Below, piece after piece: positions 8,677-32,835 of a DNA stretch of 64,000 nucleotides. The translations under genes were made by a program, and so were the position numbers. The notes beneath the pieces are model-generated. The model was given only the letters and a program-made list of their open reading frames with translations. It was not told where the DNA came from and ran no database searches. The number at the start of each line of letters is the position of its first letter. Position 1 is the stretch's first letter. The stretch is from a bacterium UBP8_UBA817 (GTDB taxonomy: Bacteria > Margulisbacteria > Marinamargulisbacteria > SXXA01 > SICP01): contig CAMDGG010000006.1 in the NCBI GenBank assembly GCA_945898045.1, positions 5,393 to 69,392 on the forward strand, written 5' to 3'.

Positions 8677-9294
8677 ATGACACAAGCAAAAACAAACATC
8701 CTAAAACAAACAACCCTCACAATCCTCAGTGTCATTGTATTAGGATCTTGTTTCAACATTTCTTGTGCAAATGACATCGATACAACCAAAAGCACCCTAA
8801 CAATAGACACACTCCTTCACTTTGGATCTGGTTTCAACGATACATTTCAAGCCCCTAGCGGCAGCAAAGATTCCGTTAACCTCAACAACAAAACCAACTC
8901 ACTATCCATACTCAGCGCCGGCTTTAAATCACTCGGACAAGAAATGGATCAATATAATGCTGATACACGAAGTGCAGCAAATGGTACTGGACCAGCTAGA
9001 GTAACCACTCCCCCACTTGTCTACCCCAATCCTTTCCGCCAACAAACTGGTGCAAAATTAGGGTATGGATTAGCTGGAGAAATCAATGAAATTGAAATTC
9101 AAATCTATGACATGATGGCTCATTTAATCACAAAAAAGACATTCAAAGATCAAGGTGCAAGACAAGGTTACAACCTTATTGATATCAATCTACAAACATT
9201 CGATGGCTATTTTCTTTCTGCGGGCGTTTATTTTTTCCTCATCCTAAACGACGGGAAAGTACTAGCTAAAGGAAAGGTTGCGGTGATCCCATGA
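8677..9294 (+). CDS. small secreted protein with T9SS-type (Por_Secre_tail / FlgD-Ig-like) C-terminal sorting domain
   Basis: N-terminal signal peptide with a possible lipobox (VLGSC). The C-terminal ~90 aa (LVYPNPFRQ...IEIQIYDMMAHLI...SAGVYFFLILNDGKVLAKGKVAVIP) follows the YPNPF ... GVYF ... K-x-V pattern of type A T9SS sorting domains. Confidence 0.6.
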   Translation: MTQAKTNILKQTTLTILSVIVLGSCFNISCANDIDTTKSTLTIDTLLHFGSGFNDTFQAPSGSKDSVNLNNKTNSLSILSAGFKSLGQEMDQYNADTRSAANGTGPARVTTPPLVYPNPFRQQTGAKLGYGLAGEINEIEIQIYDMMAHLITKKTFKDQGARQGYNLIDINLQTFDGYFLSAGVYFFLILNDGKVLAKGKVAVIP

Positions 9295-10220
9295 AAAGAC
9301 TAGCGCTAGCAACATGTATCGCAGTGCTTCTATTGAACACTTCTGCAAAAGCAACTGGAGAATTCTTCATCTCCACAGATGTAGGGTCTTCAGCAGAAAT
9401 GATTGGTCAAGCTAACGTAGAAGGCTTTACCGACAAAGCCAATAACGTTTTTGATAATCCTGCAGGACTTTATAGAATCAACCAATTCTCTACCAGTCTC
9501 TTCACAACAACATTCATGAACGAAGTCACTTATAAAAACATATCTGTAGCAATGAGATTAGCAGAAGGTGTAATAGGATTAGGCTATATGTCTACAGATG
9601 TAAGCGGACTGATCTCAACAACTGCAAACAGAAATGAAAACCAAGAAATCACAGAAATCACATCAGATGGCAACACGTTCGGCTATAACAACACCATGAT
9701 CAAAGCAAGTTACCAATGGTCTCAAACTGAACACCTCCACTGGGGCACATCAGCCGCCTACTATACAACTTCAATAGGGGACGTTACTGGACAAGGTATT
9801 AATCTAGACGCAGGCGTCATCCTGGATTACTATCCTTTAATACTATCTATATCAGCAAAAAACGTATTAGCTGGTAAAGTAAAGTATTCTAATGGGGGCG
9901 AAGAAAATCTTCCGCTACAAACAACATACGGGGCACAATACAATTTCAATGAATTCCAAGTTGCTGGACAATTCAAAAGCAAAGGAAGCAATCACAATAT
10001 GCTGAAATCAGCTTACATTGCTTACCACCCCAGCGCGCTACCTTTTCTAGAATTATCAGGTGGTTACAAAGAATACAGTGTATTAGATGCAGTAAAGAGT
10101 AATTTAACATTTGGATTAGGATTAAACCTCTCAACAATCAGTTTCAACTATGCCTATGAGTCTAGCGAGAACATTCAATTCAACCACAAACATTATTTTT
10201 CAGTCGGCCTTTCTTTCTAA
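9291..10220 (+). CDS. PorV/PorQ-family-like outer-membrane beta-barrel protein
   Basis: Signal peptide (AKA|TG). The N-terminal GEFFISTDVGSSAEMIGQANVEGFTDKANNVFDNPAGL resembles the PorV/PorQ family start. Alternating beta-strand pattern throughout, with terminal ...YFSVGLSF ending in Phe as in OM barrels. Confidence 0.55.
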   Translation: MKRLALATCIAVLLLNTSAKATGEFFISTDVGSSAEMIGQANVEGFTDKANNVFDNPAGLYRINQFSTSLFTTTFMNEVTYKNISVAMRLAEGVIGLGYMSTDVSGLISTTANRNENQEITEITSDGNTFGYNNTMIKASYQWSQTEHLHWGTSAAYYTTSIGDVTGQGINLDAGVILDYYPLILSISAKNVLAGKVKYSNGGEENLPLQTTYGAQYNFNEFQVAGQFKSKGSNHNMLKSAYIAYHPSALPFLELSGGYKEYSVLDAVKSNLTFGLGLNLSTISFNYAYESSENIQFNHKHYFSVGLSF

Positions 10221-10236
10221 AGAATGAGGACATAGT

Positions 10237-13200
10237 GTGAAACGAAAATTATTACTTGCTCTTCTAACTTGGTTTACTCTCTTCGCAACAGCTGAATTTG
10301 CGCAAGTTACCTTTACATTTCAAGGCAGTTTAATTAGGGCAGACAAAACGTTTGTAAATGGCACCTATAACAACGTAAAAGTGGGCGTATACTCCGGTGC
10401 AGATCAAAACGTTTCCCCCGTTTGGTCAGAACTACAAAATGGTGTAGTTTTTGAAACGGGTCGTTTCAGCATCCTTGTGGGCAACACAGATCCCATAAAC
10501 AATCCTCTGAAAATCGAAACGCTCAATATTAACAGCCCTTACTTAGGACTTACGATTAATGGCAGTGAGTTTTTCATTCCATTTACCTCAACACCCTACA
10601 GCTTGCGAACAAAAGTAGCAGAAAAAACAAATGCCGTATCAGCACAGTATATAGTAGGAACCTTTACAAAGCCTGTAACAATAAAATCCACATTAACCAT
10701 TACCAGCGACAACATAACGCTACTAAAAACCACCCCCTTAAAACAGGTTGGAATCGGAAAAGACAACCCTCTAACAAAAATCGTAAATGGCAAAACAGTG
10801 GCCGACGCAACGCTTGACGTCAACGGCCCCGTCAATAGTCAGACAGGCTTCAAAATAAATGGTGTCGACATCGCAAGCACTTTGTCATGGAAACAAAATA
10901 AAATTGTTACAAAAAATATTTATTATGCAAGTGGGAACGTGGGCATCGGACTACAAAACCCTAGCTATGCTCTAGACGTGCAAGGAACACTGAATGCAAC
11001 ACAAATATTACTTAAAGGGAAACGTCTTTCCGCCGGACTAGATTGGCAGCCCCAAACCAACGCAACACAAAATTTATACTTCAAAAAAATAGAAGATAAT
11101 CGTGTAGGCATAGGAAGAGTAGACCCGCAACAATCACTGGATGTTAATGGCAGTTTGGCTGTATCAAGCAATACTACGGATCAAACAGCCCCACTAAACG
11201 GCATGATCAGAATGTCACCTACCAACAATGAAATACAGGGATTCAGAAACAACCGATGGATTCAGTTAACAGGATTAAGAGGGCAAGGCCAAAAAAATCA
11301 AATTAGTTTCTATACGAATCAATTTGCACTTTCTGGATACACACCCTTTGCATGGAGATCACAAACCAACATGTTAGGCATTGGAATTGCGATACCCCAG
11401 GCGCAATTACATCTATTAAAAACAGAACCCCTAGCCCCTTCCCTTTATATTGGTACAAACACAAATCAAGCTTTATTGGTTGTTACCGCAAATGGAAACG
11501 TTGGAATTGGAACCGCCACACCCAACCAAAAATTGGTTGTAAAAGGAACGCTAGATGCAGAAGAGCTAACCGTAAATGGACTAAACTTATCATTGGCCGT
11601 CTCGAATTCATCCGTATGGATATTAAATAAACAAAGTAGTTTATTTTACAAATTAGGAAACATAGGAATTGGAAAAATCGACCCGAAAAGCCCCCTTACA
11701 ATAGCGCAAAGAATCAACCATCCTGACGAAGACCCGGCATTAACATTTCGTCAAAGCAATGGCAACAGTTATACAATGGGCATTAGTAGTAAATCTCCCG
11801 GCATTTTCCGAGTAGAACGAGGCGACAAATTAAATACCTCCACGCCACTATTTGTCATGAAAGACACCTCCTTTGGTGTGGGACTTACAGATCCATTAGC
11901 CATACTCCATGTCAGCGGTAATGAAGGAGCTGCTTTCAACGGTAAATTCTTTGGTGTAGTTAATGAGACCTTTCCCGAAGTAGACTCCGCAGGAAAACCG
12001 ATTCTTCCACAGGTAGTGCAGGAAGGCGCTGGAACACGGTTTATTTGGCATCCATTACGTGCAGTTTTACGAGCTGGAACTGTGACTGGCAATCAATGGG
12101 ACAACATTAATCTAGGTAAATTCTCTATCTCATTTGGATTAAACAATACAGCGAGCGGTAATTTCACAACGATATTAGGAGGGCAAAATAACCTCGCAAC
12201 AGGTGCTTACGCCACCATATTAGGGGGGCAAAACAACCAAGCCCTGGGCGATTTTTCTTTAGCCGGTGGATATCAGGCTAAAGCACTTCACCACGGATCG
12301 TTTGTGTGGGGAGATCGCCTGGGCCAAGCTCTGAGGACAAACGCTCCTAATCAATTTTTGATCAAAGCATCCAATGGCATAGGGTTCGGAACAAATCAAA
12401 CTTCAACTGATGGCAATAAAAGTACATTAACGATTAAAAAACCAACCCCAAGTGGTAATATTTTTCAAATAGTAGGCCGAAATCTAACCACAGACATCTT
12501 CCAAATAAGCACATCCGGCAATGCCATGATAGGCTCTAAAGCCAAAACAACCGCAGGATTAAGTGTCATCGGGAAAACTCAATTCGGAAAAAAACTAGTC
12601 ACCCCTACGATAAATAGCTTTTTAACAATTTCTAGTGAACATCCTACACAAGCTATTTGGGTTTCAAATAGTGATGGAGATATCGTAACAACGCCAAATT
12701 TCATTCTTACTAGCTCTGGAAACATGGGAAGCAACATCATCCCTTTGGCCTCCGTTATTACGCAGTTTAAAAACGGAACAATTCAAATAGGAAAAGGCGG
12801 TATATTGGGCGACAGCTATGAACTCCCCGACGGAACAAAGATCGGAACACAAGCTATTGAAGTCTGGGGTATAGACTCACCCCCCAACCTCTATTTTACA
12901 ACCGGAAATGTGGGCATTGGCACAACACGCCCTACAAGTCTTTTAACAATTTCAAACGTTGCAAGCAAACTCTTTCAATCACCAAAAAATCCTGCCATAA
13001 CTTTCTCGAAAAACACTACCTCATACACATTAGGTATAGAAAACAATTCACCAGACATCTTCAAAATAGTATCCGGGTATGACCTAATACAAAGCCCAAA
13101 AATTGCGTTTAAATATTTGGATAATTCCATTGGAAGAATGGGCATAGGAACAGAGAATCCAAGAGCAGTATTTCATGTAAACAACGCTGCGATCTTAGGA

Positions 13201-16200
13201 AAAACAATATCAATTGCCACATCAAATAACGATACTAGATACAACTTGATCGCCGGATCAGCCTCTTTCAGGCCTCTATTTTTAAACAAACAATTTACAT
13301 CCGCATCTGGAACACCCTGGACTACAACTAGAAATGCCAGCCTCTATTTTACAAACGGGAAAATTGGAATTGGCACAACTAGACCATCAACAGATATCTC
13401 AATAGCAGGAAGTATAAACGCAACCTCAGTCCGTATTAAAGATGCATTCATAGTCAAAGAAACCACAACTTTAACTCGACTCGATTTCTTAAATGACAAT
13501 GGGCTCCCATTAAGATTGGGAGTGAGTGCTTCCAAGTTACGCCTAGGTGATCTATCTATTTCAGACATCCTCTCCAGAGGAACAAATACAGCACAAACAA
13601 AAGGACCTGTAGTTTTATGGCAAAGCGCCAATGTCTTAGGTGACACACAACTAATATGGGCTTCCGATGCAGCGCACCCTGATCAAAGTGGAACACTCAC
13701 CGCAACTAAAAACGTTCGTATTCCTACCACGTTAACTAAACCCAATTCATTCCAACAAACAACCTTAGTACAAGTAGGGTCTGCCAATATAACCAATGCC
13801 CTCAACATTTCATCAGACCTTACTCATAACGGTAACATTTCTAATTCAGAGTCTCATAGCAGTCAAAAAATAACGCTAAATCTGGGACCAGGTGATTGGG
13901 ACGAGAATAACAATTTCACAGGAATCGATATCAAGATAGTTAATAAAGCCAATGCCAGTGGAGCCACCAATTTCACAACACAATCCCAAGCGATAGGATT
14001 AAATATTGATGTGAGTAAAGTTAAGACTCAACAGACAGGAGAACCTGGATTCAATTTTGCTGCCATTTTTAATGGGAACGTCGGTATCAATAAATTTCCA
14101 TCGCCAACTACACCAACCAGAGCCATATTGGATGTCAAGGGCATTGTAGAGGCCGACTCATTTATCATTTCAAAAAGACTCAGCATCACCACCCTTAACA
14201 TAACTGGCGACGTCTTAACCGTAAAACAAACCCGCCCTATTACCATCGGTCTTCCAAAACCAACCAGCCCGACATACGATCTTCTTATACAAGGAACCGT
14301 AGAGGCGACAAATGGCAGTATTGGGCTCTTAGAAACAAAAACACTAAATACCGCGCAAAACGCACTTCTTGTAAATCAAGCTGGTCAAATAGGTCTTGGC
14401 ACCACATCGCCGGAAGCCGACTTTCACATCAAAAAATTATTTACAACCACAACAGACAAAGATTACTTTGCAAAAATTTCACACAGCACAATTGACATTC
14501 CAATCTCCCCCAAAAAATTAACAACGAACTTTACGGGTTTTGACATCGCTCTGAACACAAAAACGAACAATAAAATAGGACAACCACAAACACCTCAAAC
14601 AGCAACAGGCTTGTCTATCAACCTTAACAATATGGCTTCTAATGCAAACGGTACAATCATTGGGATTTCCAGCAAAACCAATAAAACTCAAAGTAAAGCA
14701 AAATCAGCGCTATTTCTCGGAGGAAATGTTGGCATTGGGGTTACTAACCCAACAAGCACACTCGCTATCGTTGGAACAATCCGAGCAAAGGCCGTAGATA
14801 ACACCAACTTATTAACCCAACAAGAAGCAGCGTCATTTAACAGACTCGTAGTAACCGATAGCGCAAACTTTAAAGGACCCGTCACTGCAAACACCCTCTA
14901 TGCAACAAGCATTATCACCAAGACCGATCAACTTACTATTAACGACAGCATCACGCTCCCTACAATCGCATTAACTATTACAGGCACACCAGGATTATTA
15001 ACAAGTAAAGCACTTTCAATCACAGCAAATACAACAGCCAACGCACTTACTCTCATCGGAAAATTGACAGGCACCTCGGCAACATTTAATAATCTCATCT
15101 TAACCAATTCTCTTACAACCGCTACACTCAATATCTCGCGTTTACAACAAAACGACACTATTGAACTTAATGCAGCACAAGCCAACTTCAACTCACACAC
15201 AATAGTTGCAAATGGAATCGTTGGTATTGGCATCACAAACGCAACAGAACCTCTCTCCATCGCAAGTACTAAAAAAACAGCTACAATCTTACGTGTTCAA
15301 AACCTCTCAGATATCAAGACTACAGCGGCGGGAATTCTGCTAGTACCTGACATCAAAACCGACCAAAATACAGGATCCGGCATTGTAGCCATTAAGGTCA
15401 GCGATACAGGATCAGCTGCACGAGGCTCAGACCTTGCTTTCATTACAGACCCCATCAATGGAACACAATCAGAACGCGCACGTCTTACGCAAGCAGGAAA
15501 CTTTATTATTGGCACCAGAAATGCCTCAAGCAAGTTATATGTCCATCAAACTTCTGTAATACAAAATACGGCGACATTCAATACAAAAGTCACTACAAAA
15601 GCGCTGACCTCTGCAAGTGATATCAGCATTAAAAAAACAACTATATTTAATAATGGAGCAGAAATACATGCCCTTTTGACTCAAAAACCTATCCTCATTA
15701 AATTAACTACGCTTGGCTCTGTCACATCTGGAACCAGCGCACTAAGCCCTTCATCGTCTGGAAAATTAATTTACAAAACAATCTTGGATGATAATTCGGT
15801 TGTTGCCTCTGACATCACTTCTCTTGTAACTGGATCCGTTGGACGACTCCCTTATTATACGAGCAGTCATAAATTGACAGATACATCCTCTTTAACATGG
15901 GTAACACAAAATATATCCAGCATTCCCTACAGTACCCTCGTTATTGGGAAAGTAAGTTCTGCAAGCATGGCCATAGTCGCAACGCTAAATAATACATTAA
16001 TCGGCAGCCCAACAGCTGAAGACATCCAACTAACATTTAAAGATCGCACTTCTGATATTTCAACATATGGAGGAAGAAAGTTCTACGGTTTACAAATTAT
16101 CGCTTCCAGAAACACCAATGCCAGTGTAGCCCCAGGAGAAACAACAAGAGGCCTATATGTTGACCTCTCTTCACTTAAAGCTGAAAGCACTAACTTCCAA

Positions 16201-21122: not shown

Positions 21123-21988
21123 AAAACCACATGCCCGCATTTTTCCACTACCTCTCCTATGAAAAAAGAGTCTCTCCAAACACTATCACTGCATACAGAC
21201 AAGACCTCACGCAGTTTTTCGAACAACACACAGACCTTACAGGTGATACCATTTCACAATTTGTCACAGAACTAACACAACAAGGCTACAAAAATGCATC
21301 TGTTACACGCAAAACCTCTTCACTCAAAACATTTACTACTTTTCTTTATCGAGAAAAATACATATCCACCCACCCCATCGCCCTTTTAACACGTCCAAAA
21401 CGTGAAAAACGTCTCCCGACCACACTAAATTCATACGAAATTAATGAGCTGCTACATACAGCGGCAGATCATACTAAAACCCCACTGAGAGACATTGCAT
21501 TAGTCGAAATACTCTATGGCTGTGGACTCAGAATTACAGAATGCCTCAACATCAAATTAACAGACATCAATCACCATCAACAAACTTTACTCGTGACAGG
21601 GAAAGGACAAAAACAACGTCGTCTTCCTATTGGCACCAAAGCCCATGAAGCCCTTGTCTCTTATATCAAAAAAGAACGACCCTTATTAGAAAAAACAAAC
21701 ACGACAGACTTTCTTTTTATCACCCGATCTGGAAAACGATTGTCACGGCAAAACAGCTTTAGCCGCATCAAAGCACTCGCCAAACAGGCCTCACTAACAA
21801 AAAAAATGAGTCCTCATACCCTAAGACATACCTACGCAACCCATTTGCTAGACGGCAACGCAACGCTGCTAGAAGTACAAGCACTCCTCGGCCATAGCAA
21901 TATCACCACCACACAACTCTATACCAAAGTTTCTACAAAACGACTCAAAGAACGCTATTATCAAGCACATCCGAGGGCTGTCGCATGA
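21119..21988 (+). CDS. xerD: tyrosine site-specific recombinase, XerC/XerD type
   Basis: N-terminal SAM-like domain (FFHYLSYEKRVSPNTITAYRQDL). Catalytic region LRITECLNIK...GKGQKQRRLPIG...HTLRHTYATHLLDGNATLLEVQALLGHSNITTTQLYT (R..HxxR..H..Y). Confidence 0.85.
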   Translation: MKNHMPAFFHYLSYEKRVSPNTITAYRQDLTQFFEQHTDLTGDTISQFVTELTQQGYKNASVTRKTSSLKTFTTFLYREKYISTHPIALLTRPKREKRLPTTLNSYEINELLHTAADHTKTPLRDIALVEILYGCGLRITECLNIKLTDINHHQQTLLVTGKGQKQRRLPIGTKAHEALVSYIKKERPLLEKTNTTDFLFITRSGKRLSRQNSFSRIKALAKQASLTKKMSPHTLRHTYATHLLDGNATLLEVQALLGHSNITTTQLYTKVSTKRLKERYYQAHPRAVA

Positions 21989-22578
21989 CCATAGCCATTA
22001 GCATTCTATCTCTATTAATCGCCGTTATCTTCCATGAAGTTGCACATGGGTATGTGGCCTATCGCTTCGGAGATCCTACGGCCAAACTTCAAGGCCGAAT
22101 TAGTCTCAATCCACTAGTCCATATTGACTGGCTAGGTTCTATTATCTTACCTGGCATTCTTATTCTTTCAGGAGCCCCCTTCCTCATTGGATGGGCAAAA
22201 CCAGTGCCCATCAACCCCAATTATTTTCAAAACCCCCTTCGAGACATGATGTGGGTAGCCATCGCAGGTCCACTCACCAACATCACGATAGCCCTCATTG
22301 CAAGCACCCTTTTAAAATTCCATCTCAATAGTGTTTTCGACTATTTTTTAGCCGTATCAATAAGCATTAACATCGTACTGGCACTCTTCAACCTTTTTCC
22401 AATCCCGCCACTCGATGGATCCCGCATATTAATGTACATAGCGCCAAAATCTCTCCAACAGTTTTTAACATCCATAGAGCCTTACGGGCTCGTTATTCTA
22501 TTTTTTCTAGTCTATCTCAACGTCTTTGAGAAGATCTTGCCGTTTCTGATTCACCCCATATTGGAGGCACTATTATGA
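21985..22578 (+). CDS. site-2 protease family (M50) intramembrane metalloprotease, short form
   Basis: HEVAHGYVA zinc motif, multiple TM helices, and a NLFPIPPLDGSR motif. Confidence 0.8.
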   Translation: MTIAISILSLLIAVIFHEVAHGYVAYRFGDPTAKLQGRISLNPLVHIDWLGSIILPGILILSGAPFLIGWAKPVPINPNYFQNPLRDMMWVAIAGPLTNITIALIASTLLKFHLNSVFDYFLAVSISINIVLALFNLFPIPPLDGSRILMYIAPKSLQQFLTSIEPYGLVILFFLVYLNVFEKILPFLIHPILEALL

Positions 22579-25500
22579 AATGCAAGTTTTTCCAGAAAAG
22601 ACTCGATATGAAAAATAAGAAAATCAAAAAAAATAAGGGTATAATTGTGAAAACACTAATGAAAACAAAAACGTTAATCACCCAAGCCCACCTATGGATA
22701 AGCATCCTCTTCCTAGGGTTACTCACAACCGTAAGCTTTGCTGATACGCCAATGGTTTTAACCTTCCAGGCAACCCTAGCTACACAACAAGGGGGACTTG
22801 TACAAGGTAGAAACAAAGTAACCGTAGGGATATACCCAGGAAATTCAACTGTTGCCACATGGCTTGAACCTCACGAGAATGTACTCTTCATAAATGGCAG
22901 CTGTAGTATTATCCTCGGAAACATACAGCCACTCACAGCAGACCATCTCAATATTACAAATCCGCGCTTCGGCCTCCAAGTAGGCAATAATTCTCAAATT
23001 GCCTACTTTCCTGTTCCTGCCACACCTTATTCTATCCAAGCTAAGGTAGCAGACTCTGCATTGGCCGTTTCAGCCAATAATATTTCAGGCACCTTCACAA
23101 ATCCTGTTAGGATAAATGCAAATCTATCTGTAGGAGATACGACATTATATGCCAATCCAACATCAGGAAAAGTAGGGATTGGAACCACCGCCCCAACCTA
23201 TAAGCTAGACGTTGCGGGAATTATCAATGCGACAGGATTCAAAATCAATGGCACCGACTTAGAATCATCCTTATCATGGCAAAAAAATGCCAATAGCGGC
23301 CTATATTATACCCAAGGAAATGTAGGTATAGCCACACAAAATCCAAAGTCGCTTTTAGAAGTTGCAGGAACAATCAATGCGCAAGAAATACGTATAAAAG
23401 GCGTTGAACTTGCAACCCTACTTGCCACACAACTTGCATGGCGTGAAGGAGCTAGGCCTAAAGACATTTATTTTAATGACGGTACCCAAGAAGGTAATGT
23501 AGGTATTGGCACCTCCCAACCTCGCACAAAATTAGATGTTGCAGGCGCTATTCGTGTAGGAGAAGCCCAAAGCAATGCATTGGGAAGTATTCAATACAAA
23601 AACAATGATTTTCAAGGATTTACAAGAACAGGATGGACTTCTTTTGCATCTTTAACTGGCATTGGCTCAGCCAATCAAATTCCTTTCTGGACAAATTCTA
23701 CAGAACTCACCGGAAGTAATAACTTAGTCTGGGATCGCACAAGAAATAGATTAGGCATAGGAACAAGTAATCCCACTGCACAACTAAGCATGACTGCAAT
23801 TGACGCCAATCGCGCACTCGTACGCATCGACAGCTCATTAGGTAAATCTTTATTTTATGTAGGAAGTCAAAATATAGGAATTGGCACATCAACCCCCAAT
23901 AGTAAATTGTCCGTAAAAGGAGTCGTTGATGCGGAGGCCTTTTTAGTTAAAGGCGTTCCTATAGCACAAGCCTTATCTTCAAGCTCATTTTGGATTTTCC
24001 AAAATGACGGCCGTATCTACTATGACAGAGGTAACGTAGGAATCGGAACAACTAATCCTAAAAATCTTTTAGAATTAGCAGCATCCCCCTCACACGACCC
24101 AATTATCACCTTTGATATTGCAAGCACGCCAGCTTTTAGTTTAGGGATATCAGAACTCAATCCTGACGCCTTCATTTTAGGCAAAGGCGGAGATCTTAAA
24201 AACCCTATCTTTGTTTTTAATGGCAATAAAATTGGTGTAGGTCTAACCAATCCAAGCGCAAATTTACACGTCAGTGGAAACAATGGCGTTCTGTTTACAG
24301 GGAATTTAAACAATGGTGTCCCATTAGGCATCAAAGGGGAAGGCACACGTCTTGTTTGGCATCCCGGAAAAGCAGCATTTAGAGCGGGTTACGTACAAAG
24401 AAAACAATGGGACGACGAAAATATTGGTTTATATTCAGTCGCAATGGGATACAACCCTTCCGCCAATGGGCTTGCCTCCGTAGCAGCAGGTGGATATGAA
24501 AGTGATGCCGCTGGAAATTACGCAGTCGTTGCAGGCGGCTTTCAAAATAAAGCCAAAGGAATACATAGCTTTGCAGCAGGACACCAAGCTCAGGCCCTCC
24601 ATTCTGGAGCCTTTGTCTGGAGCGATTATTCCCCAACAGCTTCAGAAACCAGTTTTAAATCTATCGCTTCTAACCAATTTGTACTACGGGCGTCAAATGG
24701 TGTTGGTATTGGCACAAACCTAACAGCAGGAAATGGACTTACCGTAGCATCAGATCTTAATGATACTTACATCATAAATGCTCTTAAACCAAATGGCACA
24801 AGCGCCATGATCGTCAATGTATCCGGAAATGTTGGGTTGGGAACAACTGAACCAGGGATTTCGAGGCTTGCTGTCATGAACGGAAAAGTTGGCATTGGAA
24901 CAACGACCCCAATCGCTCAATTAACTGTCTCAGGAAATACTCCCGAAGGATTTCTATTCGTTGCCTATAAAAACAATGGTCAACCCGGCTTATTTATAAA
25001 AAATGATGGAAAAATCGGTCTCGGAAAACCTCTAAGCTATGTCTTTCCAGACGATGTCTACTTGGCCATTTCAGGTGCCGTAGTAGGGAATGCATTTGCA
25101 ATCCAAAACCCCAACGGAAGTACAACCCCAATAGAAAGTAACCCTGGATCACCTTGGGCAATCCCCTCTGAAAATCTTAGTAGCACGTTCTTTAATAAAG
25201 GCTTTGTAGGAATAGGAACCCGAGCACCCGCAAGTCTATTAGAGTTATCTAACGCAGCCTCAGCAACTCGAAATCCAGTCATAACATTCGACACAGATGG
25301 CGTAAAACGATTTAGTTTAGGCACCACTGCCAATGTCTTTACCATTCAAAAGGGCGGCAATATCAATAGTAAAAACCCGCTTTTCGCGCTCACAGATAAT
25401 GGCAGTGGTGGCGGCGGTCTTGGCATTGGAATTGGCTACAAAACACCTAGCGCGTCCTTACATGTCAGTGGCAATTCTATGTTTACAAGTAAAGTCGTTA

Positions 25501-28500
25501 TTGCAACCACCAATACAGCACAGATCTACGACTTAACTGTAGCAGGAGCAGTGAATGTCAAAACACTCTTCATAAACGGGGATCAATTTATCCCCCAACC
25601 TAACCCATGGAAAACAAATAACCTCGACATCTACTACACAAGCGGAAACGTGGGGATCGGAACACGAACACCTTCTGCAAAACTTGAAGTTATTGGAACC
25701 GTGTCCGCAAACCAAATCATTCAAAGCGGTACATTTACGCTCAATGGAAGCTTAACGGCAAATAAATTAAGACTCAAAGATACCAGTGCCAATGTAACCC
25801 AATACGGAGAACTTGCAGTCACAAACGAAGAACTGGTTTACAAAGATCCAGCTGGCAATCTCAAGGTTATTTCGTCGCCTCTAAGAAGAGATTCAAGCGC
25901 AACCCTTGATGGAAACCTTGCGTATTGGATCGATAGGTCAACCGTTGGTGTCAGCAATATTGTATGGAAACATGCTACGAACGAATTAGTGGTATCAGGT
26001 AATCTAATCGTTAATGCCTTAGCGCAAGAAACCGACGGATTCACAGCACGCTCCCACATTTCAATGGGACTTCCTAATGCACTCGAACTCACAAGCACCA
26101 TTAATCATGGCGGAGATTTAAGAAATGTCAGGAGCTACACAGGGCAAAACATCCTCGTAAACGTACAAAGAAATTGGGGAAATATTAACACCCCCGTATC
26201 AGTAAGAGGCCTAGATATTGTTATAAAACAAACTGATAACAACCTGTTTTTAAACAGAGCAAGTGCTATTGGCCTCAACGTAGATGTATCCAAAGTAAAT
26301 GTCGATGTCGCTGGCGGTGGAAAAAAAGCAGCCGCTATCTTCACAGGAGGCTTTGTTGGCATTGGAACAACAACCCCACGTGCAGCACTTGAAGTAGTAG
26401 GAACCGTTTCAGCAAATTATTTTAATCTAACCGGCGGATTAACTGTACCTGAACTCTTTATTAATACAGATGCTCTCGTTGCCTACAAAGACCCATCCAC
26501 ACAAGCACCCCGAGTGGGCGTAGGTACCACAACCCCCAGAACAGAATTAGATGTTGTAGGTACCGTCTCTGCAAACGTATTTAATGTCGCAAACAATCTG
26601 ACAGCAGCTATTCTCAATGTCAATAAAGGTGCTCTCTTTGTAAATAGTGCCGGAAATGTTGGAATTGGAACCACACAACCCAATGGCCAAATTGAATTAA
26701 AAAAAACAATTACCACTACACCAAGCACCCCTTTCTTTGCTGAAAAAATTGGTGTCACGATAGACGGTGCTGGAAAAGATCAAACGTTTGCCTTTAATAA
26801 AATTTTAAGTGGCTTAGATATTACATTAGATTCAGGAACAGGAAGTCAAATCGGAAGTGGGAAAATCGCAACAGGTGTGAGTGTTAATTTAACAAATCTA
26901 GAACTGGATCCCGCAAGTACCGCGGTAGGGCTTAATGTAAATGTAACGGGTACAACAGGTAAACGATATGCCGCTATTTTTACAGGAGGTCGAGTAGGCA
27001 TCGGTATCACAGAACCCCAAGCAGAACTACATGTAAGCGGCAGTATTAAGGCCGACAACTTGATACTTGAAGGTACATTAGAAGCAAATATAGCCACGTT
27101 CAACAAGTTAACAATCAATAGAACAGGTTTATTTAACGGATCCGTTACTATTAATACACTTGCAGTTCTTGGGAAACTAAGTGCAAACAGTCTTACGCTT
27201 AGCACCCCTTTAACAGCAGCTCAAGGAACCTTTTCAACGCTCAACGCCCAAGTTGCATCCTTCAACAAAGTATCCATCAATACACTGCGCGTAAACAATA
27301 TAAATGGTCCCTCTGCAACAGCCACGCTTAACACCCTCACGGTGACAGAAAAAACGCGTGCACAATCGGTTGCAATCACCAACAGCCTCACCCTCTTAAA
27401 TGCAACCATGAATATTAATAGCAATACGTTAGTAATAACACCCAGCAAAAATGTAGGAATAGGCACCAGTACGCCGCTAACAACACTTCATATCGAAACT
27501 ACAAGATCTAGTACATTTGCGGCAGACGATAGCAATACGTGGAACGCCATTCGTATTCAAAACAACAACAATGCCATAAATTCAGCAGCGTCAATTTTAT
27601 TGGTTCCTGACGAACGTCGCCCCTCATTTAGCATAGGGTCTGGCATCTCCGCAGTCAGAAATAATGGTAACGCAAATTCTGGATCAGACTTGGTTTTTGT
27701 CACCGATAGAAATAGTGGTGCTCCCGTCGAAGGAATGCGCATTACTGAAGCTGGAAACATAGGTATTGGTACCACAACACCAAGAGCCCAACTTGATGTA
27801 CAGGGAACAGCTTGGTTCAATAGCACCGTAACAATAAATGGCACATTAGGTGTAGGAACTCTAAATAGCACAGGGAATTTAACAATTAATACACCCGCTG
27901 GGAAAAGCATCTTTCAAAATACCGTTTCTGCAAATGCCACTATACAAATACAAAATGGGTTATTCTTCAAAGGCACAACACCACCTACAGAACAAGCAGG
28001 TTATGGCGCACTATATATGCTCAGCACAGACAAAAATCTGTACTACCAAAATCCATCCGGTACCAGCATTAACTTAACCGCAGCCTATACCGGAAAAAAT
28101 GGCGTGATCCCATTCTTTAATTCCAAAAATAGTCTCGATGATACAGCACCTCTTTTCTGGAACAACACCAGCAAGACACTAACAGTCGGAACCAGCAATA
28201 TCGTGAGCAATGTTAAAATTATAAGCGTCATCGATAACAGTACCAATCCCACTGAATTTTCAGGGCAAAGTATATCCCTTGGATTTGGAAACCGTACAAC
28301 AGCTGGCACCTCTGTATTTTCAGGATTAAACATACAACTCAAAGGACAAACGCCAAACGATCCCTTTACATTTGGACGCTTAGCACAAAACGAAGTTGCA
28401 ATCGGATTAAATGTAGATGTTAGTAACCTGGCTGCAAGACGCACCAATTCATTGGGAAGTAGTCTTACAGGATTTAAATATGCCGCCATATTCACAGGAG

Positions 28501-31500
28501 GCAGTGTAGGTATCGGCACTAAAACACCCATTGCCTCACTACACATTGCAACAGATGTAACAGGAAACCCAAGTCTTATTATAGATAGCAAAAGTTCTGC
28601 AGGAACCCTCATCCAAAATGCCCTAGTGGTAAGCAGTAACAGCTTTATTGGTATGGGAACCGCCACTCCATTAGCAAGACTTCATGTCGTTGGATCTGAC
28701 AGTAGTACAAATAACGCTGCCCTCAGAATTGTAGATACAACAGGCAGCACACTGATGATCGTTAAAAATAACGGGAATATTGGTATCGGAAAAACCAACC
28801 CGCAATCCAAACTAGATATAAACGGAACATTAACCGCCACAACCGGTAGCTTTGACGGCGTAACCGCGACAACGTTAAATGTTGGTAATGGAAACCTTTT
28901 TGTAAATGCCAGTGGCAATGTAGGTATCGGCACCATCACGCCCACTGGAAATATTAATTTTTTCAAAAGAATTACAGCATCCAACATTCCTGATGGCAGC
29001 TTCACTTCACAAAAAATGGACCTTATTATATCTGGAGGAACCGTCAACAACCTATTTAGTCTAAACAAAGACATTACAGGCATAAATCTATCCCTAAGCT
29101 CAGAAGCCAACAACGTCCTTGCGGCCAGTAAAACAGCCACTGGGATTAAAATTGATATGAGCACTTTAGGAATACAAACCGGCACAACGGTAACCGGTCT
29201 TGATATCAACGTCACAGGAACAACCGGAACACGCTACGCCGCACTTTTCCAAGGTGGAAACGTAGGTATTGGGGTTACGCAACCAACAGCCTCCCTACAC
29301 GTCTCTGGAAATATCAAAACGACATCATTAATTAGCGATGGCAGCATCAATGTCGGAACTGTCACTGCCAATAGCTTACACATCGCTGGAGACGCGCAAT
29401 TTACGGGTAGTGTTACTATTAACTCACTGGTAGCTACCACCGTCTCAGCAAACAATTTAACCCTAACCGGAACACTCACATTAGAAAAAGCGAATCTTAA
29501 TATCCTCACAGGTACAACAGCCAAATTCACGAAGCTAGGTATCGGTGTAACCCCCAATAATGCTTTAGACGTCAGCGGAAACCTAACAGTATCCAAAGGA
29601 AGAATAGGTATCGGCACTACCGATCCCACAGCATTACTCCATCTCTCTGCTCTCAACCAAAACGCGCTTGTTATCGATGTAAAAAACGCAACAACGACAA
29701 CACTAAATGCACTACTCGTAAATAGCTCTGGATACATCGGCATAAGCACAGCCAACCCAACAGCAAAACTCAGTATCGTCGCAGATAACAGTAACGCTAC
29801 TGGCTATGCTCTAAAAATCAACAACCTCACCAAAACTATTTTAGCCCTACAAAATAATGGAAATATGGGTGTTGGGACAGCCAATCCAAAAGCAATACTG
29901 CATACAATAGGCACAGCGAGCACACCTCCCCTACGTGTAGATACAAGCACCCTTTCGTTTGCATTAGTTGCAAGTCAAAATGGCAGAATTGGTGTAGGTA
30001 CAGCAAATCCACAAGCCCTACTCCATATTGTAAACAGTAGTATTGCTCCATTCAAAGTAGGTACCTCAGCCCAGCCCAATGCACTATGGGTTGATACAAG
30101 TGGTCGGGTAGGAATTGGCAGCACTACCTTTACATTTCCATTAAACGTCAGCGGAAACATGTTGCTAGGATCAGATCCTTCAGGTAGCAGTTTACCCTCT
30201 TGGGTTACAAGCGCAAAAACAGCCGGTGTACTAGCAAATAGAGGCACTAAATATGCCTTCTTTGGGGCAAAAGAAAAAACAACGATCGCCAATGATTATA
30301 ATGCCGTCATCAGCTGGAAAACAGCGGACACATTAACATTCGAAAACACCACAAAACCTCTCTTCTTTATTCAAGGAAGTGGCCAAGTAGGTATAGGGGC
30401 AACGTCAAATGCACAATTAAATGTGAGTGGAAACGGTACCACCCCAGTTCTTCAAATTGGCACTGCAAGTGCGCCTTTTGCTCTAATCGTTTCGGCTAAT
30501 GGTCGTGTAGGAATCGCAACTTCCAACCCCTCCGCAGAACTAGCTATTAACGGGACATTAATGGCCAAAAAACTAACTATTTTAAGCGATACAGTTAGCG
30601 TATCCACTCTCAACGTCACAAAACAGCTAACCATATCCCGAACCATTACAAATGCGACTAAACCAGCAACGGCTCAAAGTATTACAGTCAATCTTGGGGC
30701 AGACGTCGCCAAAAATATTGTCGGAGTAGACATCACGCTCAAATCTTCTCAACATAGCTCTTTAGCGAGAAACAATTCTCTCTACAATGCCAATGCATAT
30801 GGATTAAAAGTGGATATGACTGATCTTGAAAACCAAGACCCTACACTTGGAAATGCAGCCAATGGCAATAAATATGCGGCCACATTTACAGGGGGCGCAG
30901 TCGGCATCGGAACACTCAGACCCTCCGTTCTATTCCAAGTGATCGGAGATGCCGGCGGAGACATTGCACAATTTGGCACAGTTGAAAATGCAGCCCTTAC
31001 GATACAAGATGTGGACGCAGGATTAATGCGTATCAACCTAGTAGACCAAACAGACGTTTTAACCAAACATGAAACCCTCGTCTTTTATAAAGATATTGTT
31101 GGAATCGGCACCAATACAGATACCATCAAAGCAGAAGATGCCAACACCAAATTGCTTGTAAATGGAGATGTTCGTGTTGGGGTACTAAGAAACAGCGGAC
31201 AACTTAACATGGCTGGAGTCGCTGACCCAACAAATGAACCCAGAGCCTATGGTGCTAAACTGTACTTTTCAGGAGCGGCAGACGTATCAACTCAGTATGA
31301 TAACGACAATAACAGTCCCCTTTGGATGGCTAGATACAACCGTGGCAACCAAATTTCTGAATTACGTGTCAATGTCGGAAATGGAGACGGTGATAAATTT
31401 GTTGTGGGCACCGCAGTGGGTGGCAGTAATTTCAAACCCATCTTACTTGCTATTCCAAAAAGTACGACCGGCGCAAACAGAGTAGGTATAACAGACGGAA

Positions 31501-32336
31501 CCCTATCAAGCTTTACCCCCACAGCACCATTACATGTCATCGGTAGTACGTCAGGCTCTTCAGAATCAGCATCAAGCCACCTCGTCGTAATAGAAAATAC
31601 AGGCGGTGCAAGTTCTGACAGTCTTGTTATCTGGCATAATGGTTACCAAACACCATCAAATGCATCAAAAGTACCTACAACATCTAACTTTATTACCTTT
31701 ATGGATAAAACAGCAGTGTTAGGTGAAATCGAAGGTAGCGGTGGAAACGGAGTACGGTTTAAAACAGCCGGAGCGGACTATGCAGAGTATCTTCCGAAAA
31801 TAGATCCTACAGAAAAAATTAATAAAGGAGATATCGTCGGTGTCTTCAACGGCAAGATCAGCAAAAACACAGCTGGGGCAACACAAATTATGGTTCGAAG
31901 TACAGACGCAGGTGTTGCAGGAAACTGGCCTGGAAAGAAAAATGTCGGCAACTATGAACTCATCGCATTTTTTGGACAAGTTAAAGTCAATGTTTCTGGT
32001 CCTGCTCATAAAGGTGATTTCATTTTACCGTCCAATAAAAATGACGGGACTGGTGTAGCTGTATCAGAACAAAGAATTCATTCAGAACAAATCCCACAAA
32101 TACTAGGACGCGTTTGGGAAGATAAGCCTGGAAATGAGACCGCCAGCGTTCTAACGGCAGTTGGATTTAATTTTAGTATTCCATCACTCAGAAGTGAGAG
32201 TGCAGCCATCTCTACACTTAAAAATGAGTTAGAAACCCTCAGAAATAAGCAACAGGATTTAAGCACCCAATTTGAGGAAAAACTTGAGGCCCAAAATAAA
32301 GAAATTGACGCATTGATACTAAAGCTGAAAAAATAA
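22575..32336 (+). CDS. giant secreted fibre/adhesin-like repeat protein, tail-fibre-like (paralog B, 3253 aa; true start may be 22608 or 22659)
   Basis: Uninterrupted 9.8-kb ORF. A Lys-rich extension is followed by the signal-like LWISILFLGLLTTVSFA. About 35 GNVGIGT-type motifs. Co-linear with paralog A from the N-terminal domain (TFQ..L....V.VG.Y.G...W.E) to the C-terminal ADYAEY domain and coiled coil. Confidence 0.85.
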   Translation: MKCKFFQKRLDMKNKKIKKNKGIIVKTLMKTKTLITQAHLWISILFLGLLTTVSFADTPMVLTFQATLATQQGGLVQGRNKVTVGIYPGNSTVATWLEPHENVLFINGSCSIILGNIQPLTADHLNITNPRFGLQVGNNSQIAYFPVPATPYSIQAKVADSALAVSANNISGTFTNPVRINANLSVGDTTLYANPTSGKVGIGTTAPTYKLDVAGIINATGFKINGTDLESSLSWQKNANSGLYYTQGNVGIATQNPKSLLEVAGTINAQEIRIKGVELATLLATQLAWREGARPKDIYFNDGTQEGNVGIGTSQPRTKLDVAGAIRVGEAQSNALGSIQYKNNDFQGFTRTGWTSFASLTGIGSANQIPFWTNSTELTGSNNLVWDRTRNRLGIGTSNPTAQLSMTAIDANRALVRIDSSLGKSLFYVGSQNIGIGTSTPNSKLSVKGVVDAEAFLVKGVPIAQALSSSSFWIFQNDGRIYYDRGNVGIGTTNPKNLLELAASPSHDPIITFDIASTPAFSLGISELNPDAFILGKGGDLKNPIFVFNGNKIGVGLTNPSANLHVSGNNGVLFTGNLNNGVPLGIKGEGTRLVWHPGKAAFRAGYVQRKQWDDENIGLYSVAMGYNPSANGLASVAAGGYESDAAGNYAVVAGGFQNKAKGIHSFAAGHQAQALHSGAFVWSDYSPTASETSFKSIASNQFVLRASNGVGIGTNLTAGNGLTVASDLNDTYIINALKPNGTSAMIVNVSGNVGLGTTEPGISRLAVMNGKVGIGTTTPIAQLTVSGNTPEGFLFVAYKNNGQPGLFIKNDGKIGLGKPLSYVFPDDVYLAISGAVVGNAFAIQNPNGSTTPIESNPGSPWAIPSENLSSTFFNKGFVGIGTRAPASLLELSNAASATRNPVITFDTDGVKRFSLGTTANVFTIQKGGNINSKNPLFALTDNGSGGGGLGIGIGYKTPSASLHVSGNSMFTSKVVIATTNTAQIYDLTVAGAVNVKTLFINGDQFIPQPNPWKTNNLDIYYTSGNVGIGTRTPSAKLEVIGTVSANQIIQSGTFTLNGSLTANKLRLKDTSANVTQYGELAVTNEELVYKDPAGNLKVISSPLRRDSSATLDGNLAYWIDRSTVGVSNIVWKHATNELVVSGNLIVNALAQETDGFTARSHISMGLPNALELTSTINHGGDLRNVRSYTGQNILVNVQRNWGNINTPVSVRGLDIVIKQTDNNLFLNRASAIGLNVDVSKVNVDVAGGGKKAAAIFTGGFVGIGTTTPRAALEVVGTVSANYFNLTGGLTVPELFINTDALVAYKDPSTQAPRVGVGTTTPRTELDVVGTVSANVFNVANNLTAAILNVNKGALFVNSAGNVGIGTTQPNGQIELKKTITTTPSTPFFAEKIGVTIDGAGKDQTFAFNKILSGLDITLDSGTGSQIGSGKIATGVSVNLTNLELDPASTAVGLNVNVTGTTGKRYAAIFTGGRVGIGITEPQAELHVSGSIKADNLILEGTLEANIATFNKLTINRTGLFNGSVTINTLAVLGKLSANSLTLSTPLTAAQGTFSTLNAQVASFNKVSINTLRVNNINGPSATATLNTLTVTEKTRAQSVAITNSLTLLNATMNINSNTLVITPSKNVGIGTSTPLTTLHIETTRSSTFAADDSNTWNAIRIQNNNNAINSAASILLVPDERRPSFSIGSGISAVRNNGNANSGSDLVFVTDRNSGAPVEGMRITEAGNIGIGTTTPRAQLDVQGTAWFNSTVTINGTLGVGTLNSTGNLTINTPAGKSIFQNTVSANATIQIQNGLFFKGTTPPTEQAGYGALYMLSTDKNLYYQNPSGTSINLTAAYTGKNGVIPFFNSKNSLDDTAPLFWNNTSKTLTVGTSNIVSNVKIISVIDNSTNPTEFSGQSISLGFGNRTTAGTSVFSGLNIQLKGQTPNDPFTFGRLAQNEVAIGLNVDVSNLAARRTNSLGSSLTGFKYAAIFTGGSVGIGTKTPIASLHIATDVTGNPSLIIDSKSSAGTLIQNALVVSSNSFIGMGTATPLARLHVVGSDSSTNNAALRIVDTTGSTLMIVKNNGNIGIGKTNPQSKLDINGTLTATTGSFDGVTATTLNVGNGNLFVNASGNVGIGTITPTGNINFFKRITASNIPDGSFTSQKMDLIISGGTVNNLFSLNKDITGINLSLSSEANNVLAASKTATGIKIDMSTLGIQTGTTVTGLDINVTGTTGTRYAALFQGGNVGIGVTQPTASLHVSGNIKTTSLISDGSINVGTVTANSLHIAGDAQFTGSVTINSLVATTVSANNLTLTGTLTLEKANLNILTGTTAKFTKLGIGVTPNNALDVSGNLTVSKGRIGIGTTDPTALLHLSALNQNALVIDVKNATTTTLNALLVNSSGYIGISTANPTAKLSIVADNSNATGYALKINNLTKTILALQNNGNMGVGTANPKAILHTIGTASTPPLRVDTSTLSFALVASQNGRIGVGTANPQALLHIVNSSIAPFKVGTSAQPNALWVDTSGRVGIGSTTFTFPLNVSGNMLLGSDPSGSSLPSWVTSAKTAGVLANRGTKYAFFGAKEKTTIANDYNAVISWKTADTLTFENTTKPLFFIQGSGQVGIGATSNAQLNVSGNGTTPVLQIGTASAPFALIVSANGRVGIATSNPSAELAINGTLMAKKLTILSDTVSVSTLNVTKQLTISRTITNATKPATAQSITVNLGADVAKNIVGVDITLKSSQHSSLARNNSLYNANAYGLKVDMTDLENQDPTLGNAANGNKYAATFTGGAVGIGTLRPSVLFQVIGDAGGDIAQFGTVENAALTIQDVDAGLMRINLVDQTDVLTKHETLVFYKDIVGIGTNTDTIKAEDANTKLLVNGDVRVGVLRNSGQLNMAGVADPTNEPRAYGAKLYFSGAADVSTQYDNDNNSPLWMARYNRGNQISELRVNVGNGDGDKFVVGTAVGGSNFKPILLAIPKSTTGANRVGITDGTLSSFTPTAPLHVIGSTSGSSESASSHLVVIENTGGASSDSLVIWHNGYQTPSNASKVPTTSNFITFMDKTAVLGEIEGSGGNGVRFKTAGADYAEYLPKIDPTEKINKGDIVGVFNGKISKNTAGATQIMVRSTDAGVAGNWPGKKNVGNYELIAFFGQVKVNVSGPAHKGDFILPSNKNDGTGVAVSEQRIHSEQIPQILGRVWEDKPGNETASVLTAVGFNFSIPSLRSESAAISTLKNELETLRNKQQDLSTQFEEKLEAQNKEIDALILKLKK
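23166..31544 (+). repeat. array of ~35 degenerate GNVGIGT-x-x-P-x-x-x-L-x-V-x-G motifs (paralog B)
   Basis: Examples are GKVGIGTTAPTYKLDVAG, GNVGIGTSQPRTKLDVAG, GNVGIGTRTPSAKLEVIG, GRVGIGITEPQAELHVSG, GNVGIGVTQPTASLHVSG and GRIGVGTANPQALLHIV. The super-module GLNVDVS...KYAAIFTGG-VGIGT recurs near 26260, 28390 and 30790. Confidence 0.85.
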
Positions 32337-32365
32337 AGCACTAATCCCCAGGAGGATACACCATT

Positions 32366-32833
32366 ATGTATGTCAACCGATCTGTAGAACTATCATCTGA
32401 AAACGAACATCGTTTTCAAAACTTCATTGTATTTGAACCTGCCTCATCCAGAGTAGGCGACTGTGACATCCTCATCAAAAGTGAAAAAGTAAGAGACCTG
32501 TATGAGCGCATCTACACCAATCTCGAAGAAAGCCACGCAATCAAAGATCGTATTCTCAAAAATAGGCTTGTTAAAATAGGCCAAATGTTAGATCTACTTG
32601 TTGTGTATGATCACGTCATTATTACCAAATTTTTCGACCGGATCTGGAGACGCTATTCGTACATCAGCAATATCGGAGAACTCTTTTTAGATTACCCTAC
32701 CTTCATACACCATTTCCCAGAATACAAAGAGAAAAAGACAGAATTACTCGCCCAACGCATTGACGATGACGATGACGAAGAAGCTGACGGAGATGACGTC
32801 GAAATCGCAGATCCAGTAAAAACAGAAGAATAA
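32366..32833 (+). CDS. hypothetical protein with poly-acidic C-terminal tail
   Basis: AGGAGG lies 8 nt upstream of the ATG. 155 aa with no signal peptide or TM. The C-terminus is QRIDDDDDEEADGDDVEIADPVKTEE. I recognise no family. Confidence 0.55.
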   Translation: MYVNRSVELSSENEHRFQNFIVFEPASSRVGDCDILIKSEKVRDLYERIYTNLEESHAIKDRILKNRLVKIGQMLDLLVVYDHVIITKFFDRIWRRYSYISNIGELFLDYPTFIHHFPEYKEKKTELLAQRIDDDDDEEADGDDVEIADPVKTEE

Positions 32834-32835
32834 AC

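Follow-up and report, generated by a model that had tools for sequence, protein, structure and literature searches.

In a 64,000-nucleotide (nt) stretch of contig CAMDGG010000006.1 (hereafter the window), from the Marinamargulisbacteria genome UBP8_UBA817, eight consecutive plus-strand open reading frames (ORFs) run from nt 8677 to 32833 and encode, among other products, two giant proteins with the architecture of phage tail fibres. We find that the first three of these genes, encoding a small secreted protein (ORF1) with a type IX secretion system (T9SS) C-terminal domain (CTD), a PorV-like outer-membrane barrel (ORF2) and giant fibre A, form a conserved three-gene module. We propose, at a probability of roughly one half and by analogy with known barrel-CTD pairs, that this core is an envelope module of the Margulisiibacteriota in which the barrel and the CTD protein would make up an outer-membrane anchor for self-trimerising fibres.

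The module emerges from comparison with related loci, which were retrieved by looking up exact proteins and by scanning the GTDB species genomes once, and which carry L numbers here where they must be told apart. A small ORF directly precedes the barrel gene in all 16 of them, with a 4-nt overlap in 15, and a giant ORF follows the barrel gene in each of the 14 loci whose contig continues, at a spacing of 3-58 nt or, in one locus, with an overlap. The same triad, with a giant of 4411 residues, is present on a JGI contig. Barrel identity across the related loci ranges from 96% down to 32%, and the giants vary from 1,208 plus 399 residues (apparently split, L001) up to 5,023 residues. The surroundings are different: upstream neighbours differ in L001, L003, L004, L005 and the JGI contig with the 4411-residue giant, and in L001 and L004 unrelated genes come after the giant. 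Because the triad is kept across deep divergence while its flanks have changed, we regard it as a conserved three-gene module. The initial annotation of this DNA, which had hypothesized a surface-fibre system, had pointed to co-occurrence in relatives as a test, and the CTD protein, barrel and giant are indeed syntenic in every related locus inspected. One metagenome-assembled genome (MAG) holds two copies of the ORF1-barrel pair (L009 and L013).

Named homologues of the barrel and of ORF1 belong to Candidatus Margulisiibacteriota and Marinamargulisbacteria, and the nearest genome contig, which belongs to a deep-water MAG from Lake Baikal, encodes a barrel 92% identical to that of the window. 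Looking up the YchF of the window by exact match returned nothing, so the collection searched does not include the genome of the window itself. Four triad-bearing contigs (L004, L014, L015 and L017) come from assemblies that go under the names Thermoproteota archaeon, Actinomycetota or Rickettsiales, probably through mis-binning or mislabelling. A barrel homologue with 36% identity (P0051) occurs in a eukaryote-derived assembly (eukprot, a COSAG01 node of 10.9 kb), which may point to Margulisbacteria that accompany or contaminate a cultured protist or alga. In L003 we rejected an apparent pair of tandem giants (3103 residues and a called product of 2341 residues) as one gene broken by a run of N at ~20100-20260; the L003 giant is most likely a single protein of more than 5,000 residues.

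The first gene of the triad (ORF1, 8677..9294, 205 residues) encodes a signal peptide (residues ~1-31), a linker (~32-104) and a T9SS type-A CTD (~105-205, nt ~8989-9291). It scores 27.8 bits against TIGR04183 (cut-off 23) over residues 115-202 of 205, and its L001 orthologue also lies above the cut-off at 28.5 bits; against Pfam PF18962 it reaches 23.8 bits, under the cut-off of 27. An NCBIfam scan also matched ORF1 to the C-termini of the PorU and PorZ models, and NCBI names the Lake Baikal orthologue a T9SS type A sorting domain-containing protein. Fifteen aligned orthologues all have a signal peptide; the ~90 residues that follow are variable, and the CTD is well conserved and shows the motifs YPNPF, GVYFY and KGK.AV.P. 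In an AlphaFold2 model, residues ~105-205 fold as a seven-to-eight-strand beta-sandwich (block-mean pLDDT 87-98), while the linker, with pLDDT around 50, is predicted to be disordered. We found no folded passenger: signal peptide and CTD are separated by ~75 predicted-disordered residues, and all 54 relatives in the database are 131-282 residues long. As modelled, ORF1 is a secreted mini-protein whose type-A-like CTD is its sole folded part. A candidate lipobox (LGSC) was rejected, as its Cys is not conserved among orthologues.

ORF2 (9291..10220, 309 residues) carries a signal peptide, is highly conserved in its N-terminal segment and ends in Phe. Its profile scores are 51.3 bits for the PorV family NF033709 (PorV_fam, E 1e-13; curated cut-off 90 bits), 27.3 for PorQ (cut-off 220) and 18.6 for PorP/SprF (cut-off 90.55); the matches are significant yet below the cut-offs, which makes ORF2 a distant relative of the PorV/PorQ/PorP barrels. 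The AlphaFold2 model (pLDDT 89.6) contains ~14-15 strand elements after the conserved N-terminal segment. Its best Foldseek matches in the PDB are to chain F of the T9SS translocon entries 8gl6 and 6h3i (E 2.4e-9, TMq 0.72), a chain that we take to be PorV, and the next-best are FadL and TodX. By its model, ORF2 is a FadL-like outer-membrane beta-barrel resembling PorV, PorQ and PorP. No relatives of the barrel were found in viral contigs.

A second barrel-CTD pair, transcribed divergently from the triad, is encoded in L001 (6756-9171, minus strand), where the gene for an S8 serine protease with a type-A CTD (TIGR04183 24.5 bits, cut-off 23) overlaps a barrel gene. That barrel has 290 residues, is a distant paralogue of ORF2 with 24% identity and weakly matches NCBIfam PorV2. 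The pair is in line with a barrel family that partners CTD proteins within the phylum and, as a single case, suggests that each CTD protein there has its own barrel, much as type-B CTD proteins and PorP-like barrels do in Flavobacterium.

Giant fibre A (10237..20598, GTG start, 3453 residues) and giant fibre B (22575..32336, 3253 residues) are colinear paralogues with 32% identity over their full length. Each begins with a signal peptide, directly followed by a domain of ~130 residues (the N-domain; nt 10297-10686 in A and 22743-23108 in B) that is also conserved in four related giants. A long tail-fibre-like shaft comes next, and the last ~190 residues hold a Peptidase_G2 intramolecular-chaperone domain, after which a coiled coil closes the protein (nt 20032-20595 in A; G2 domain at nt 31776-32333 in B). 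PHROG tail-fibre families match both giants, with families 9942 (4e-37) and 18345 (2e-29) matching giant B, and motifs of the form VGIGTxxPxxxLxV are scattered through the shafts, 12 in A and 22 in B. Self-BLAST found no internal tandem repeats in either protein. T, N, S and G are abundant in the two giants; giant A is cysteine-free across its 3,453 residues and giant B contains ~0.1% Cys. Signal peptides and PHROG matches bear out the initial description of the giants as Sec-signal proteins built like phage tail fibres.

The chaperone domain is seen best when the C-terminus is taken by itself. Pfam PF11962 gives 27.6 bits against the isolated C-terminus of giant A (cut-off 25) and matches all four C-termini examined (best E 5e-9), against only 19.2 and 13.1 bits on the full-length giants. 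In the C-terminal profile, the D of an invariant DYAEY motif aligns with residue 1 of 3gqh, the C-terminal fragment of phi29 gp12, and the profile also matches the chaperone domain of the Dpo31 tailspike. Both giants are predicted from these matches to end in a self-cleaving trimerisation-chaperone domain, with autocleavage sites predicted before D3266 in giant A and before D3068 in giant B. Relatives of the G2 domain occur in viral contigs. Pfam detected no S74 domain in giant A or B, where Peptidase_G2 takes its place.

No other Pfam or NCBIfam family matched the giants at E<=0.1, and a sequence comparison of the whole giants with the PDB returned nothing for B and just a 22.8-bit UspA1 match for A. 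The two giants had been said to lack any hallmark of known export routes, and this holds in the Pfam and NCBIfam searches, which detected no autotransporter, POTRA, RTX, LPXTG or CTD domain in them and no TpsB/POTRA partner, type I secretion system or sortase-type export component among the products of neighbouring genes. A separate 308-residue fibre-like protein is encoded at 44180-45106 on the minus strand; its features are a signal peptide, three motifs of VGIGT/VGIAT type and a coiled coil at the C-terminus, it is weakly similar to the shafts of giants A and B, and no N-domain, chaperone domain or Pfam/NCBIfam match was detected in it.

The N-domain extends well beyond the giants, to tail-fibre-like proteins of several bacterial groups. 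An exhaustive HMMER search with its profile returned 594 clusters (50% identity); among the best 150 of these 594 matches the domain nearly always lies at residues ~25-150, and protein lengths among the matches listed run from 115 to 4,843 residues. Named carriers include proteins of Margulisiibacteriota and a 'tail fiber domain-containing protein' of Neomarinimicrobiota. Among four shorter N-domain proteins that were scanned (874-1,275 residues), three end in Peptidase_S74. A 226-kb contig of the JGI metagenome 3300072015 carries three tail-fibre-like genes of ~1,200 residues in tandem with overlapping starts and stops, all with a C-terminal Peptidase_S74 and the first with the same N-domain as the giants; no barrel or CTD gene was found near this array. 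The N-domain had no relative in the PDB at the sequence level.

PorU and PorZ retain their CTD and bind a barrel through it. By analogy, the CTD of ORF1 would dock onto or into the ORF2 barrel, as in the PorZ-PorQ, PorU-PorV and SprB-SprF pairs, and the flexible N-terminal linker of ORF1 would hold the N-domain of the fibre. The giants would be exported by Sec, and the G2 domain would drive trimerisation from the C-terminus and then cut itself off before the D of DYAEY, like that of phi29 gp12, to leave a long fibre that is predicted to be trimeric. If its per-residue length were that of Bdellovibrio fibre tips, this fibre would measure roughly 100 nm or more, a figure meant as an estimate only. 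The barrel-CTD pair would serve as the cell-proximal anchor of the fibre and perhaps as an adaptor for surface delivery, an arrangement equivalent to SprB-SprF except that the CTD would come in trans. The same anchor would also serve giant B and the other fibres that carry this N-domain. The remaining genes of the locus (Nudix, XerD, M50 and orphan) and ychF would be neighbours, not components. Because the phylum includes a symbiont, the fibres would most likely mediate attachment to other cells.

The proposed fibres have a published counterpart in the MAT fibres of Bdellovibrio bacteriovorus, which combine a signal peptide, an N-domain, a trimeric fibre and a chaperone and mediate prey recognition; the partner of their N-domain was left for further study in the 2024 paper (PMC10769870). 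In architecture the MAT fibres and the giants are alike, sharing a Sec signal peptide, an N-domain of ~130 residues (beta-rich in MAT), a phage-tail-fibre-like shaft and a C-terminal chaperone, predicted to be self-cleaving in the giants. The giants are three to five times longer, at 3,253-3,453 residues (~5,000 in relatives) versus roughly 600-1,150 for the MAT constructs (PMC10769870). Their chaperone is Peptidase_G2 where MAT fibres have S74, although S74 does terminate shorter proteins that share the N-domain of the giants, and giant A, unlike MAT fibres, is linked to a barrel-CTD gene pair. Phage tailspikes and fibres such as phi29 gp12, Dpo31 and the S74-bearing endosialidase share with the giants the C-terminal domain, the DYAEY motif and a shaft of tail-fibre PHROG type. 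The giants, by contrast, are cellular genes with signal peptides, have a putative cell-anchoring N-domain instead of a virion-attachment domain, and are an order of magnitude longer.

The proposed anchor has its closest parallels in the T9SS. PorV and PorP-like barrels are CTD binders, and the 669-kDa SprB is held by SprF (PMC9143113). In SprB-SprF and PG1035-PorP, a type-B CTD protein is held by the PorP-like barrel encoded next to it (PMC9143113); in SprB-SprF a giant surface protein is encoded beside a 14-stranded FadL-family barrel to which the CTD binds. The present locus differs from SprB-SprF in that its CTD belongs to type A and is carried by a 205-residue protein of its own rather than by the giant, and in that the giant is tail-fibre-like and predicted to be trimeric and to end in a cleaved chaperone; the phylum, moreover, is not known to possess a T9SS. 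The PorQ-PorZ complex and the attachment complex of the Porphyromonas T9SS (PMC10947112, PMC8545088 and PMC12365241) offer a second parallel, since PorQ-PorZ and PorV-PorU likewise pair a PorV/PorQ-type barrel with a type-A-like CTD protein. ORF1 departs from PorZ and PorU in having no enzymatic or lipopolysaccharide (LPS)-binding passenger, just a disordered linker of ~75 residues, and neither sortase nor A-LPS machinery like that of the Porphyromonas T9SS is in evidence here.

Several observations weigh against a barrel-CTD anchor. ORF2 falls under the curated cut-off of the PorV family (51 versus 90 bits). The ORF1 linker is poorly conserved and predicted to be disordered, and a specific fibre-binding site is not evident in it. 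Foldseek searches with the ORF1 model return generic Ig-like sandwiches, with PorU at rank 14, so the fold adds nothing to the sequence evidence for a CTD. Neither giant B nor the shorter S74 fibres with the same N-domain are adjacent to a barrel, which makes the barrel linkage specific to A-type giants. We infer the contacts among CTD, barrel and fibre from analogy, and the likeness of the N-domain to that of Bdellovibrio MAT fibres is one of architecture. The model also leaves unexplained how a giant of 3,400 residues, or ORF1 itself, would cross the outer membrane.

One answer to the last point would be an ordinary T9SS in an unexpected phylum, which we consider unlikely while giving it some weight. 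SprA/Sov, PorKLMN and PorU would then be encoded elsewhere in the genome, ORF2 would be a cognate PorV/PorP-like shuttle, ORF1 would be a regular T9SS substrate or adaptor, and the giant would pass through the translocon piggy-back on ORF1. Both T9SS signatures are present, namely a type-A CTD above its cut-off and the PorV/PorQ/PorP profile matches; the best structural match of the barrel is presumably PorV within the SprA translocon complex; and the protease-CTD and barrel pair of L001 resembles a classical T9SS cargo with its shuttle. Set against this, reviews restrict T9SS to the FCB superphylum or to Bacteroidota/Bacteroidetes (PMC12398890, PMC11611037 and PMC10202324), and a literature search gave no paper joining Margulisbacteria and T9SS. 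No T9SS core gene was found in the 64-kb window or in the listed +/-10 kb flanks of the related loci, a result that says nothing about the rest of the genome.

A different answer is that the barrel itself exports the giant in two-partner style, a reading that we judge improbable. ORF2, maybe with the CTD of ORF1 as a gating plug, would let the unfolded giant through the outer membrane or release it laterally, and the C-terminal chaperone would then assist the fibre in folding and trimerising on the outside. The order and tight spacing of barrel and giant in 14 of 14 loci fit such a role, a C-terminal chaperone domain suits folding after export, and FadL-family barrels have lateral openings. 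A channel that conducts protein would, however, be expected to be larger than a barrel of ~14 strands whose N-terminal plug segment is conserved, and ORF2 has no POTRA or periplasmic domain, while giant B and other N-domain fibres lack a barrel of their own. We know of no precedent for a PorV/FadL-type barrel that translocates protein alone, and we regard translocation of anything by this barrel as speculative.

About equally improbable, in our assessment, is a neighbourhood of genes that share no function, in which ORF1 and ORF2 would serve, for example, as a surface cap and a FadL-like uptake channel and would adjoin the giant through slow rearrangement. This clade does keep the order of unrelated housekeeping genes, as the window and L019 show at a YchF identity of 66%, and, after chain F of the translocon entries, the barrel model comes closest to FadL and TodX. 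Inertia alone would not be expected to preserve the triad where its surroundings have changed, and the MAG with two copies of the ORF1-barrel pair also speaks against it. We rejected as very improbable a prophage or phage-derived remnant, with the giants as viral tail fibres and XerD as integrase, because, despite the PHROG tail-fibre matches, the viral relatives of the G2 chaperone and a tyrosine recombinase sitting between the giants, genes for capsid, terminase, portal and tail are all missing from the window, each giant has a signal peptide, the profile scores of the recombinase are those of XerD/XerC, the locus resembles the rest of the window in composition and shares its order, housekeeping genes included, with a relative at 66% YchF identity, and no relative of the barrel was found in viral contigs.

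The genes around the module were assessed in the same searches. Between the giants lie a Nudix hydrolase (NudE/ADP-ribose pyrophosphatase-like; 20595..21122, 175 residues; PF00293 at 2.5e-18, NudE at 6e-25), a XerD-type tyrosine recombinase (21119..21988, 289 residues; TIGR02225 at 296 bits, PRK00283 at 294 bits with a cut-off of 279) and a small M50 intramembrane metalloprotease with no PDZ domain (21985..22578, 197 residues; PF02163 at 2.5e-16). An acidic orphan (32366..32833, 155 residues) follows giant B, and ychF (32836-33930) comes directly after the orphan. Pfam, NCBIfam and PHROG profile searches of the products upheld the functional labels first given to the locus.

These genes are best judged against L019, a diverged relative whose barrel is 45% and whose YchF is 66% identical to those of the window. 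Its order giant-Nudix-XerD-M50-YacP-giant-YchF-VCA0040-M16-methyltransferase matches the window from 10237 to 38077. Within it, the block of XerD, small M50, NYN/YacP, B-type giant and YchF occupies 5316-19848 in L019 and 20595-33930 in the window, which is missing the YacP gene and has the orphan ORF after giant B. Giant B is orthologous to the second giant of L019 (40.7% identity over 2386 residues, same position), whereas giant A shows just 29%; A and B are in consequence ancient paralogues held in fixed positions. A JGI contig carries XerD-M50-YacP-giant without an A-type triad upstream, and Nudix was not found after the giant in L001 and L004.

The initial annotation had treated all eight genes as one coupled unit, and here our analysis departs from it. 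The Nudix-XerD-M50-YchF order is shared with one diverged relative and is absent in two other lineages (L001 and L004). Because the colinearity continues into housekeeping genes (the VCA0040-like gene, the M16 peptidase and the methyltransferase), Nudix, XerD, M50 and YchF are probably bystanders of the fibre module, and XerD is probably a housekeeping dimer-resolution enzyme. XerD and M50 are conserved upstream neighbours of B-type giants, a pattern in which function and inherited order are inseparable; on this ground we left M50 out of the model as a dedicated fibre component. A second M50 of RseP type, whose counterpart in L007 has PDZ domains, is encoded 2.3 kb upstream of the locus (5321-6403, minus strand), which marks the small M50 at 21985-22578 as an extra paralogue and not the housekeeping site-2 protease.

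The orphan is acidic and lacks a signal peptide, and its gene has a strong ribosome-binding site, AGGAGG. Neither Pfam nor NCBIfam gave a match for it, and none of the related loci encodes a relative; in L019 an 85-nt spacer separates the second giant from ychF, and on a JGI contig a 174-residue ORF of unknown kind follows the giant. The rest of the window is housekeeping, with SurA, FtsEX, transketolase, RseP, MazG, SepF, YggS, fatty-acid synthesis genes, GlnA, PyrG, DprA and Dxr. The genes for fatty-acid synthesis form a cluster broken by a PIN-domain ORF (43462-43854), and a 640-residue K/S/P-rich ORF (58192-60114, minus strand), for which no Pfam match or signal peptide was detected, lies near a gene for a Fic-domain protein (60979-62043, minus strand).

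As to layout, the map of eight plus-strand ORFs was reproduced to the base, as were the five ATGA overlaps and the gaps of 16 nt, 29 nt and, before ychF, 2 nt. The start of giant B is the sole soft point of this map and is slightly uncertain: its alignment to giant A and to the L019 orthologue begins at M29 (nt 22659), and GGAGG lies 7 nt before the ATG at 22575, favouring the overlapping start. Overlaps of 4 nt are enriched within the locus, at five of its eight junctions versus 4 of 29 same-strand junctions elsewhere in the window. The caution originally attached to the ATGA overlaps was apt, as the whole genome is compact and the window tightly packed, so that coupling alone says little. 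It is also true that no obvious terminator-like hairpin is visible, an observation that carries little weight since intrinsic-terminator-like matches in the locus stand at the level of shuffled controls. Promoter-like matches also stand at that of shuffled sequence, and the base composition of the locus resembles that of the rest of the window.

How much of this is new has to be stated in parts. Each part is of a known kind: the barrel is PorV-like, the CTD is type A, the shaft is that of a tail fibre, the chaperone is G2 and the N-domain is MAT-like. The first description of the system as previously undescribed goes too far for the fibre architecture, which is published for MAT fibres (PMC10769870), and for anchoring by barrel and CTD, which is the principle of SprB-SprF (PMC9143113); the combination and the separate CTD mini-protein do look new. 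A literature search found no description of a conserved triad with a passenger-less CTD protein and giants of 3,000-5,000 residues in Margulisbacteria, and a search on Termititenax found nothing relevant.

The strict linkage provides a testable candidate anchor for MAT-type fibres, a PorV-like barrel together with a mini-protein that is nearly CTD only. It also places two signatures regarded as specific to T9SS in a sister phylum of Cyanobacteria, so that either the range of T9SS is wider than believed or the barrel-CTD recognition module has an independent life. We advance tentatively, and with more doubt than confidence, the stronger idea that Margulisbacteria have no T9SS translocon and use cognate pairs of PorV-like barrel and type-A CTD as a minimal, self-contained surface display, in which ORF1 would be an empty adaptor that plugs the MAT-like N-domain of a ~100-nm-scale fibre into the outer membrane. 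If such T9SS-free display were true, it would supply the missing class of anchor for the N-domain fibres of several phyla and would mean that the barrel-CTD recognition module exists outside the T9SS of Bacteroidota and perhaps predates it. Two anciently duplicated fibre genes of ~10 kb have been kept intact in the small genomes of uncultured organisms, in a phylum that includes the symbiont Ruthmannia, which points to cell-cell attachment as a central trait of the Margulisbacteria.

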